NCBI GenBank assembly: GCA_963725665.1
Contig: CAVRZA010000002.1
Coordinates: 256,001 to 320,000, forward strand
Reading direction: 5' to 3'
Source: an uncultured Actinomycetes bacterium
GTDB lineage: Bacteria > Actinomycetota > Thermoleophilia > UBA2241
DNA: 64,000 nt
Shown: piece after piece, positions 47,439 through 48,851 of the stretch
How the letters are laid out: each line of letters begins with the position of its first letter
Numbering within the stretch: position 1 is the stretch's first letter
Notes under the pieces: model-generated
Told to the model about the DNA's origin: nothing
Database searches by the model: none
Seen by the model: only the letters and a program-made list of their open reading frames with translations
Program-made: the position numbers and the translations under genes

Positions 47439-48851
47439 GTGAGCGAGATCCTGACGCGCATGGGCGACGGCTACACGGTCGTCATGACTCCCGATGAGGT
47501 GAGGGCCGACCTGGTCGCCGGATCGGAGGACGCCGCCAAGCGGGGCAAGGTCCCCGTGCTCGAGGAGTCGGAGTTCGACTGGCTGTTCGACCTCTTCGCC
47601 AATCCGAGCCGCATCATGGGCGTCGAGCGGGGGCACGAGATCATCCTCACCAAGGACGGCTCGGTCAACACCCTGTACTCGGCGCAGCTCTCGAGCGGCG
47701 TCGGTCTGCCACTGAGCCGCGAGCAGGCCTTCCGCGTCTTCGAACGGGCCTTCTGCTTCGACACCATGGAGATCGGGCATCCCGACTACTCCTTCAAGCC
47801 GGTCAAGGCGATCGTCGCCCTGGAGGCGACCGGGGTCGAGCAGGCGCTGCACGGCACCATCATCCCGGTCTTCTACGGCGCCATGCCCAATTTCGGGCTC
47901 TACGCGCGGCCGGACGGCCCCTTCCCCAACCCCGCCGACCTGCTGCCGAAGGGGCAGATCGCTGAGGCGCGCGAGGCCCAGATGGAGATGGCCGAGATGT
48001 GCCGCGACGACATGGTCTACGTGAGCAAGAAGATGGCGGCGGTGGGGGCCGACGGCATCAATTTCGACACGACCGCCTCAGCGGGCGACGCGGAGTTCCT
48101 CGCCACGCTGCAGGCGGTCGAGGAGCTGGCCGAGAGCACCGACCTCGCGATCGAGGTGGGGATGGCCGCCGAGATGGTGCTCGGCTTCCACGGCCAGCTC
48201 GACTACGACGGCAAGAAGCTCGCCGGCATGTGGCCGCACCAGCAGGTGAAGGTCGTCGAGAAGGCCGGCGCCCATCTCTTCGGCCCCGTCGTGAACACCA
48301 ACACGCGCAAGAGCACGCCCTGGAACGTGGCCCGCGCGGTGACGTTCGTGAAGGAGTGCTCGAAGGTGGCCGAGATCCCCATCCACGCCAACGTCGGCAT
48401 GGGCGTGGGCGGCGTGCCCATGTACGAGATACCACCCGCCGACGTGCTCACGCGTGCGTCGGCGGCGATGGTCGAGATCGGCCGCGTCGACGGGTTGTAG
48501 GTCGGCACGGGCGATCCCTACGGGATGTCCGTGAGTCACGCGCTCGCCTCCGGGATGGGAGGCATCCGCACCGCTGGAGACCTGGTGGCACGGATGCAGC
48601 TCCGCAAGATGAGACTGCGGGAGGCGAAGGAGTACGTGGCCGAGAAGCTCAAGGTGAGCGTCTTCGACCTCGCCGACTCGACCGTGATGCGCGGGCTGCG
48701 GGAGGAGCTCGACATCGGCGTCATCACCGCGGTGCCGGGCTGCGCCAAGGGGCTCGAGGCCAAGGCGCGCATCGCGGACCTGCTCGACATCGAGATCAAC
48801 TCGGTGAAGCGGCTGTTCGACAAGGCCGGCGCGACCAAGGCGAGCCGGTAG
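47439..48851 (+). CDS. mtbB: Pyrrolysine-containing dimethylamine:corrinoid methyltransferase (470 aa with TAG read-through at 48498-48500)
   Basis: [75 protein letters not shown]. Confidence 0.92.

Follow-up and report, generated by a model that had tools for sequence, protein, structure and literature searches.

The stretch of DNA considered here, called the window in what follows, comprises 64,000 nucleotides (nt) of contig CAVRZA010000002.1 (positions 256,001 to 320,000; contig C2 below) from the metagenome-assembled genome (MAG) GCA_963725665.1 (G000), which belongs to an uncultured Actinomycetota bacterium of the class Thermoleophilia. It carries a gene of the dimethylamine:corrinoid methyltransferase family, mtbB, whose reading frame is interrupted by one TAG codon, and which very probably is a genuine and intact gene encoding a pyrrolysine (Pyl)-containing MtbB, in an organism equipped with its own Pyl system. 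The gene and its parts are arranged as follows:

47425..47431, + strand: Shine-Dalgarno-like GAGGGGG, 7 nt ahead of the GTG start, read from the sequence
47439..48851, + strand: mtbB, dimethylamine:corrinoid methyltransferase family, 470 codons, starting with GTG and ending with TAG, with a further TAG inside the frame that is read as pyrrolysine
48498..48500, + strand: in-frame TAG at codon 354, read as pyrrolysine from its alignment column, from Pfam column 354 and from its place in a predicted barrel strand (352-355)
48501..48848, + strand: C-terminal part of MtbB, the 116 codons after the TAG, recognised by dN/dS, 14 invariant columns and PF09505 positions 355-460
48849..48851, + strand: terminal TAG of mtbB, read from the sequence; the next in-frame stop is a TGA at 49002-49004, 51 codons on

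Translation of 47439-48851 on the forward strand with table 11 gives 353 residues, a stop, a further 116 residues and a second stop. A preliminary description of this DNA had located the first of these stops at codon 354 (48498-48500) and taken the gene for an mtbB, and the raw sequence agrees with that position and with the flanking residues exactly as they had been quoted. The family identity was likewise borne out by scores above the curated cut-offs. Both halves of the frame match a single profile, PF09505 (Dimeth_Pyl; cut-off 25 bits), the first over positions 3-353 (486.8 bits) and the second over positions 355-460 (156 bits), so that the TAG falls on profile column 354, and the read-through product of 470 residues scores 563 bits against the NCBIfam equivalog TIGR02368 (cut-off 369.1) over residues 3-458. 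The assigned start agrees with those of another mtbB copy of the same genome (paralog 1, described below) and of the orthologs, the motif M-S-x-I-x-T-R-M-G-D-G beginning at one alignment position in all of them. The terminal stop of the gene is also a TAG, a point absent from the preliminary description.

One scan of species-representative genomes provided 33 related loci, all of them bacterial, six of which were set aside: three have extra stops resembling frameshifts (L034, L047 and L052), two are partial (L036 and L041) and one ends at a contig edge before its stop (L040). In all 28 intact sequences (27 relatives plus the window gene) the TAG occupies the same alignment column, within the motif DG[LF]-TAG-[VI]G.GD, and the record labels of the intact relatives include Thermoleophilia/Actinomycetota, Bacillota (Anaerovoracaceae, Oscillospiraceae and Peptococcaceae) and Desulfobacterales/Desulfobacteraceae. 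Among the loci set aside, L034, L036 and L040 also have a TAG at the corresponding place, that of L041 lies beyond the partial match, L047 has several TGAs and, at offsets 253 and 709, TAGs, and L052 presents TGAs only.

An alternative to be weighed at this point is that the TAG is a true stop, meaning that the gene would be a pseudogene or would encode a truncated protein of 353 residues, with the downstream frame as an evolutionary remnant. Several observations speak for it: TAG terminates a large share of the genes of this genome and release factor 1 (RF1) is present (figures below), public gene callers end nearly all homologs at 353 residues, the window copy stands apart from the usual operon partners, and neighbouring genes of the assembly carry frameshifts. 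Against it stands, in the first place, the sharing of the TAG column by every intact sequence across Actinomycetota, Bacillota and Thermodesulfobacteriota. Decay of the 116 downstream codons, which the preliminary description had named as an outcome that would overturn the Pyl reading, was not seen either: these codons hold no further stop or frameshift, the ratio of nonsynonymous to synonymous substitution rates (dN/dS) against 13 close orthologs (79-85% identity) is 0.18-0.33 after the TAG and 0.09-0.40 before it (pairwise Nei-Gojobori estimates), and the 27-sequence full-length alignment shows 14 invariant columns past the TAG, from G356 to I445. None of the family's invariant columns is lost in the window gene, and the DG-O-xGxGD around the Pyl is among those kept. 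With the two sides of the TAG alike in constraint and the column shared by the whole intact set, the earlier judgement that a chance nonsense mutation was very unlikely stands, and the same holds for the gene being a pseudogene.

The predicted structure bears on the same question. An AlphaFold2 model of the read-through protein, computed from the 27-sequence alignment, reached a mean predicted local distance difference test score (pLDDT) of 90.8 and a predicted template modelling score (pTM) of 0.92, with an alpha/beta barrel pattern in which residue 354 lies in strand 352-355 and the residues beyond it are well ordered and packed in. The read-through protein would thus fit a single, confidently predicted domain, an arrangement that argues against the downstream part being a remnant. 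Searched by sequence, the PDB yielded no relative of known structure (best E-value 0.13, spurious), and Foldseek against the PDB gave only generic triosephosphate isomerase (TIM) barrels, with template modelling scores of up to 0.37. A wider structural aligner placed barrels of cobalamin-dependent methyltransferases at the top, beginning with the homocysteine domains of MetH, both human (Z 18.6; 261 residues, root-mean-square deviation, rmsd, 3.5) and from Thermotoga (Z 18.4; 251 residues, rmsd 3.4), with the Methanosarcina mazei methyltransferase 4ay7 (Z 18.1) and BHMT (Z 17.3) further down. Neither structural search listed an MtmB or MttB-family structure among its first 50 hits, which does not in itself show that the folds differ. 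The modelled fold class is compatible with a cobalamin-dependent methyltransferase function, as opposed to indicating a specific relationship.

The preliminary description had also held that lack of Pyl machinery in the genome would refute its reading. The machinery is in fact encoded in full, on contig C6 of the same MAG, at two loci 47 kb apart:

G000:C6:296347-299198: pylSc (+ strand) and pylSn (- strand), with a corrinoid-protein gene between them (B12-binding_2 match at C6:297552-297767)
G000:C6:343702-347001, - strand: pylB-pylC-pylD followed by pylT, from profile matches and ARAGORN

All five proteins exceed their curated cut-offs, namely PylSc (314.6 bits, cut-off 178), PylSn (119.9, cut-off 51), PylB (448.3, cut-off 348), PylC (338.7, cut-off 248) and PylD (211.6, cut-off 150). 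The tRNA-Pyl(CTA), at C6 c[343702,343774], lies directly 3' of pylD and is the sole tRNA with a CTA anticodon among the 52 that ARAGORN detected; neither ARAGORN nor Rfam found a tRNA near pylS. A complete set of Pyl genes in the genome is a further argument against the TAG being a true stop, an explanation that, taking all of the above together, appears highly improbable.

The location of these genes raises another alternative, in which the contig was mis-binned, mtbB and the Pyl machinery coming from different organisms and the host of C2 being unable to decode TAG. The MAG (3.73 Mb, about 70% GC, 97.5% complete) consists of 12 contigs with an estimated contamination of 5.04%, and the pyl genes and the window mtbB are indeed on separate contigs. 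Mis-binning of genes of this type does occur, as indicated by L032 (JBLMXT010000049.1, 4033 bases), a probably mis-binned contig from a MAG labelled Deltaproteobacteria, with an mtbB 80% identical to the window gene; other Desulfobacterales MtbB proteins are 54-55% identical to it. On the other side, C2 is a contig of 593 kb with a similar GC content of about 70%, and TAG-bearing methylamine methyltransferase genes are found on four contigs of the MAG (see below). A survey of the class, covering 201 genomes with the source genome among them and up to seven candidates scored per genome, was also informative, although it does not amount to a statistical test, the genomes being kin. MtbB occurs in 39 of them, among which are 33 of the 35 other genomes of the same family and 5 of 35 genomes of a second family, and in none of the 130 genomes of ten other sampled families of the class. 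PylSc is present in 38 genomes, in every case together with MtbB; a single genome (G110, 93% complete) has MtbB only and none has PylSc only. In G008 and G178 the MtbB and PylSc matches are even on one contig. Each of the 150 MtbB matches listed in the survey holds exactly one TAG. This distribution shows that the Pyl-MtbB trait belongs to the lineage and that mis-binning of either locus is unlikely; as an account of the window gene, a mis-binned C2 is very improbable. The nearest relatives of the gene are in MAGs labelled Thermoleophilia or Actinomycetota.

Traces of expression were also sought in public data. No indexed sequencing run holds half or more of the sampled words of mtbB. Three RNA libraries, belonging to two studies, have contigs that span the TAG (X16 record 10, X17 record 13 and X19 record 23, with 12, 16 and 26 differences from the window, respectively), but these are assembled contigs, come from relatives and may include DNA, and constitute at most a weak hint of expression; stretches lacking coverage carry no meaning.

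The window gene is one of eight MtbB-family genes in the genome, each of which has exactly one internal TAG. Multi-copy mtbB is the norm in the family, since 22 of its 33 other MtbB-positive members have at least seven matches. In a maximum-likelihood, midpoint-rooted tree of 29 bacterial sequences, the window gene belongs to a clade of eight Thermoleophilia/Actinomycetota orthologs (support 100/99), nested within a 13-sequence clade that also contains paralogs 1, 3 and 4, while paralogs 5, 6 and 7 are part of a second, well-separated clade. The eighth copy (G000:C2:503975-505331, L008) is frameshifted, with profile positions 4-402 and 403-462 in separate frames; it stands in tandem with paralog 7 and forms, with paralog 6, a non-Pyl MttB-family gene (C2:499457-500674) and genes for a solute-binding protein and an ABC transporter, a cluster of about 12 kb.

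Other methylamine methyltransferase families are present as well. The window itself contains a second Pyl gene:

31866..33347 (C2:287866-289347), - strand: Pyl-type mttB, trimethylamine methyltransferase family, PF06253 at 328.6 bits, one in-frame TAG

The earlier claim that two Pyl families occur in this DNA is thus upheld, mttB and mtbB each having one in-frame TAG. The genome as a whole has 31 MttB-family matches, seven of them with one TAG, and a Pyl-type mtmB (G000:C3:245990-247345; 630.7 bits, one TAG) that is followed about 150 bases downstream by a corrinoid-protein gene (C3:247498-247716). Each of the three methylamine methyltransferase families thus has Pyl-type members here, about 16 TAG-bearing genes in all (8 mtbB, 7 mttB and 1 mtmB), spread over contigs C1, C2, C3 and C4. 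The Pyl-type mtmB lies about 12 kb upstream of the operon that holds mtbB paralog 1, mtbC and a permease gene. Non-Pyl MtmB-family genes are found at C11:266044 and C4:197079, and a frameshifted one at C4:222297-223123. Within the window, positions 560-1952 (G000:C2:256560-257952) hold a non-Pyl MttB-family gene with two matches in different frames (profile positions 23-170 and 226-492), which suggests a frameshift, and another MttB-family match (C2:319543-320946) overruns the window end.

Around mtbB the following features were recognised:

46504..47202, + strand: TetR-family regulator with a BetI-type C-terminal domain (PF00440 TetR_N, 3.6e-15; PF13977 TetR_C_6, 1.1e-06)
48863..48900, + strand: GC-rich hairpin with a stem of about 16-17 bp and a 3-nt loop, 12 nt past the terminal TAG, without a U-tract
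48932..49112, + strand: one or more small open reading frames (ORFs) between mtbB and the permease gene, one of 49 codons from ATG 48932, overlapped by a frame (49005-49112) coding for a hydrophobic helix
49113..50771, + strand: NCS1-type permease (Transp_cyt_pur; PF02133, 1.7e-13)
50780..52286, - strand: aldehyde dehydrogenase, convergent with the permease gene, with one frameshift near 51480-51490

The TetR-family regulator directly upstream is a likely local repressor of mtbB, judging from its position and from the 33 related loci, of which 15 have a TetR homolog (36-56% identity) no more than about 6 kb away from mtbB. Just past the stop of the regulator gene there is an 8-nt inverted repeat (47216-47223 / 47249-47256), too short to interpret. 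The hairpin downstream of mtbB is a candidate terminator or mRNA-stabilising stem: the segment 48846-48935 folds at -42.9 kcal/mol (z -2.33), with 4 of 200 shuffled sequences folding equally well, and a consensus terminator scan does not call the hairpin, which lacks a T-run. Scans for sigma-70 promoters and U-tract terminators around mtbB gave nothing useful on the + strand. The small ORFs at 48932-49112 may stem from a single gene for a small membrane protein, broken by an indel in the assembly. In the permease frame no ATG, GTG or TTG precedes 49221, despite conserved-looking residues ahead of it, and an ATG is found in another frame at 49106; this suggests that 48932-49221 carries one or two single-base indels. 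The aldehyde dehydrogenase matches PF00171 over positions 1-225 in the frame of 51489-52286 and over positions 234-460 in that of 50780-51478, and its frameshift may be a long-read assembly indel or the mark of a real pseudogene.

A corrinoid protein, an MtbA-type transferase and a RamA had been said to be missing beside the gene, and this holds for the whole window (C2:256001-320000), in which B12-binding_2, RACo_C_ter and URO-D profiles have no match. Elsewhere in the genome, where such partners had been proposed to be sought, there are 13 B12-binding_2 matches, 2 RACo_C_ter (RamA-type) matches, 3 URO-D matches and a Pterin_bind enzyme, and since these missing partners do occur, mtbB is not an isolated oddity. 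One of the RACo_C_ter matches (C11:277489-278214) has an in-frame TGA that could be selenocysteine or an assembly error, the genome having a tRNA-Sec(tca) (C11:550041-550138). The mtbC-mtbB operon linkage, a typical rather than defining feature of the family, is lacking at the window copy and is found at paralog 1 (C3:259391-260764), where mtbB is followed by a corrinoid-protein gene (B12-binding plus B12-binding_2) and then by an APC-type permease gene. A Pterin_bind enzyme is encoded about 3 kb beyond this operon, on the other strand, and the context would fit methyl transfer to tetrahydrofolate, as for a non-methanogen.

In relatives, the mtbB ortholog lies directly 3' of a Pyl-type mttB in all four loci examined in detail (L029, L030, L039 and L043). 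L030 and L043 have in addition a corrinoid-protein gene (about 3-4 kb away) and a non-Pyl MttB-family gene upstream of the ortholog; L043 holds a further mtbB, and a TetR is found among the scanned ORFs of L039 and L043. In the window, the Pyl-type mttB is 14 kb from mtbB and on the opposite strand. As its partners are absent from the window, unlike those of paralog 1 and of the relatives' orthologs, the window copy has been displaced. An observation of a different order concerns L043 (7497-11350) and L030 (7725-11553), in which a gene for a sulfotransferase-domain protein follows the mtbB ortholog, accompanied in L043 by genes for ATP sulfurylase and a SulP/STAS sulfate permease. A sulfur-activation module next to methylamine genes was unexpected.

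These surroundings invite the question of the substrate. In a second reading the gene would encode a genuine Pyl enzyme, but its paralog group would have shifted to another N-methylated amine, for example a product of choline/betaine-type catabolism, with BetI-type TetR control and a link to aldehyde dehydrogenase. The eight paralogs and their two well-separated clades (50-71% identity to the window gene among the four aligned) would accommodate such a shift, as would the TetR_C_6 regulator upstream, which recurs near orthologs, and a permease unlike that of the paralog 1 operon. An aldehyde dehydrogenase gene adjoins mtbB here and is found directly upstream of it in L040, where the order is TetR, aldehyde dehydrogenase, mtbB and the aldehyde dehydrogenase is intact and 75% identical to that of the window. 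However, this link is seen in only one of the 33 related loci, all invariant columns are kept, DG-O-xGxGD included, and the equivalog score is far above its cut-off (563 against 369). The position of the ortholog directly after a Pyl-type mttB in four relatives is, furthermore, what would be expected for sequential demethylation of trimethylamine (TMA) and then dimethylamine (DMA). No MtbB-family member is known to have another substrate (no search aimed at one was made), which also counts against a shift. It is in favour of a shift, on the other hand, that most of the 31 MttB-family matches lack a TAG, such members acting on quaternary amines according to PMC10805028. The permease, taken as a possible indicator of the substrate, was dropped, since tblastn matched it at none of the 33 related loci. 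On balance, a change of substrate seems quite unlikely.

The reading that is preferred, an intact Pyl-encoding mtbB, can be described as a pathway. The UAG at codon 354 would be decoded by the organism's own tRNA-Pyl(CUA), charged by a split pyrrolysyl-tRNA synthetase (PylRS; pylSc plus pylSn) with the amino acid made by the pylBCD products. By analogy with the archaeal enzymes, the TIM-barrel protein would bind and activate the methylamine through the pyrrolysine placed in a barrel strand. The Co(I) of a separate corrinoid protein, whose gene lies in another part of the genome, would next accept the methyl group, which would go on to tetrahydrofolate via a pterin-binding or URO-D-type methyltransferase, an acceptor chain deduced from the genes present, with RamA-type activases holding the corrinoid in its reduced state. 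The eight mtbB, together with the Pyl-type mttB and mtmB, would provide an anaerobic bacterium with a complete capacity for demethylation of TMA, DMA and monomethylamine (MMA), and the BetI-type TetR upstream would probably control this particular mtbB copy. That DMA is the substrate of this paralog follows from family membership and is probable, if somewhat less so than the assignment as a Pyl-encoding MtbB.

A number of points weigh against this reading and should be kept in sight. Both the insertion of Pyl and the DMA specificity of this protein are things we infer. The correspondence with the Pyl position of archaeal MtbB is made through the Pfam/TIGRFAM profile column, the aligned sequences being all bacterial. 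The dN/dS range of 0.18-0.33 comes from a crude Nei-Gojobori estimate, in which a GC content at third codon positions (GC3) of about 0.9 compresses dS, and dS is saturated for the more distant pairs. The structural neighbours grade smoothly into generic TIM barrels (from Z 18.6 to 13.4 at rank 50). The pyl genes and the window mtbB are on different contigs of a MAG with some estimated contamination. The divergence of the paralogs leaves room for other substrates, and the neighbours do not point to DMA, the NCS1-type permease being unseen beside relatives and the aldehyde dehydrogenase being frameshifted. No corrinoid, activase or URO-D-type partner is encoded within the 64 kb, and the copy has moved out of its usual operon, or ancestral mttB-mtbB neighbourhood. 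Finally, as mtbB ends on a TAG, ambiguous decoding would give part of the product a 51-residue extension.

This last point leads to how UAG is read in this organism. Among 1637 crude gene calls, which are long ORFs with coding-like GC3 as opposed to a real gene prediction, TAG is the stop in 646 (39%), TGA in 55% and TAA in 5%, and RF1 is encoded (489.9 bits, cut-off 423). Back-up stops are not in excess, the next TAA or TGA being found at a median of 76.5 codons after TAG-ended calls and 64 after TGA-ended ones, and a constitutive, genome-wide read-through with adaptation of the stops was rejected on this ground. A local signal resembling a pyrrolysine insertion sequence (PYLIS) was rejected as well: in a single-sequence calculation, the 120 nt beginning with the TAG have a folding energy of -51.8 kcal/mol (z -1.09), a stability that 27 of 200 shuffled sequences also reach. 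Pyl insertion thus does not appear to depend on a local RNA element. Pyl insertion would most likely result from ambiguous competition with RF1, or be conditional on pyl gene expression; the simplest reading is that UAG is ambiguous, Pyl-tRNA and RF1 competing for it in any situation in which the pyl genes are expressed, and that this expression is probably conditional. A terminal TAG is found in three of the eight mtbB copies of the genome and in 14 of the 27 intact relatives, and it may have been inherited once, as 12 of those 14 are close orthologs. A programmed C-terminal extension through the terminal TAG was judged unlikely, given that the 51 codons beyond it hold the hairpin, a Shine-Dalgarno-like sequence and the start of another ORF.

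A bolder view would take the lineage as an extreme of ambiguous UAG decoding, the mtbB expansion as serving amine substrates beyond DMA, and the TetR-regulated ortholog group as one specialised enzyme. It builds on the presence of about 16 Pyl methyltransferase genes, on some 40% of TAG stops together with RF1, on the absence of back-up-stop adaptation and of a local RNA signal, and on Pyl genes that themselves end on TAG; as a whole we regard it as unlikely.

As to significance, the use of pyrrolysine by an uncultured, high-GC family of the Thermoleophilia type is confirmed at the DNA level, with complete machinery. The lineage is found in sediments, peat and wetlands, where with its full TMA/DMA/MMA set it may compete with methylotrophic methanogens for methylamines. 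Since standard gene callers stop at residue 353 of mtbB, MAG annotations undercount and mis-size genes of this kind. With many Pyl genes alongside very frequent TAG stops, the lineage lends itself as a natural example for studying how bacteria cope with an ambiguous UAG, although it is uncultured and the window gene alone does not make this question directly testable.

The family with an in-frame amber codon was reportedly defined with the MtbB1-3 proteins of Methanosarcina barkeri, in the work of Paul, Ferguson and Krzycki in 2000 and of Ferguson and colleagues in the same year. The window gene resembles that system in belonging to the same Pfam/TIGRFAM family, in its length (about 465-470 residues) and in having one in-frame UAG, apparently close to the same column of the profile, as well as in the multiple paralogs per genome and the expected requirement for pylTSBCD along with a RamA-type activase and a separate corrinoid protein. 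The MtbB family search was also positive in an M. acetivorans control genome. The present host differs in being bacterial and non-methanogenic, with tetrahydrofolate instead of coenzyme M as the presumed methyl acceptor, as the Pterin_bind enzyme near paralog 1 would suggest; in addition, PylRS is split here into pylSc and pylSn, and no mtbC lies beside the window copy. In Pyl-positive archaeal genomes, TAG represents 1-27% of the stops, as reported in PMC12626013 (2025), unlike the approximately 39% of crude calls that it ends here; the same paper models ambiguous UAG for Methanosarcina.

Among bacteria, the delta1 symbiont of Olavius algarvensis was described in 2007 as having six MtbB, two MttB and a split PylS (Zhang and Gladyshev, PMC1976440). 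It shares with the present genome the multiple Pyl-mtbB and Pyl-mttB genes, the separate pylSn and pylSc and the pylBCD genes, and a common PYLIS-like structure was reported to be absent there, just as none was found here. The two differ in affiliation, which is of the Thermodesulfobacteriota type there and with Actinomycetota-type relatives here, and in the number of TAG-bearing genes, which is higher here (8 mtbB, 7 mttB and 1 mtmB). The closest published statement concerns Actinobacteriota MAGs of the genera Bog-752 and RBG-16-64-13 from Stordalen Mire, for which expression of mttB and mtbB genes encoding Pyl has been reported (Ellenbogen et al. 2023, PMC10805028), the genes having been recognised there from their truncation at the amber codon and from their expression. 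That account does not seem to cover the pyl machinery, the number of paralogs, TAG usage or synteny. These MAGs belong to the same phylum and very probably to the same lineage, L040 being a record named 'Actinomycetota bacterium isolate bog_752' with an mtbB 74% identical to the window gene. A full-text literature search (pyrrolysine with Thermoleophilia, Actinobacteria mtbB or Actinobacteriota) found no publication that centres on this lineage's Pyl system, and the supplements of PMC10805028 may hold more.

Pyl-mtbB genes have thus already been described in bacteria (2007, PMC1976440) and in Actinobacteriota MAGs (2023, PMC10805028), and the kind of finding is not new. Less ordinary are the genome-level traits, that is, about 16 TAG-bearing genes, frequent TAG stops with RF1 and without back-up stops, and Pyl genes ending on TAG, together with the displaced context of the window copy. 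For these traits a comparison is offered by Acetohalobium arabaticum, also a bacterium with TAG as an ordinary stop, in which the pyl genes are expressed conditionally (Prat et al. 2012, as cited in PMC11467909) and Pyl insertion depends on their induction by TMA (PMC11467909). Here, unlike there, the pyl genes are divided between two loci 47 kb apart, pylSc/pylSn and pylBCD-pylT. By this analogy, a conditional expansion of the genetic code as in Acetohalobium would be the most likely model for how a genome with 39% of TAG stops tolerates the reading of UAG as pyrrolysine.

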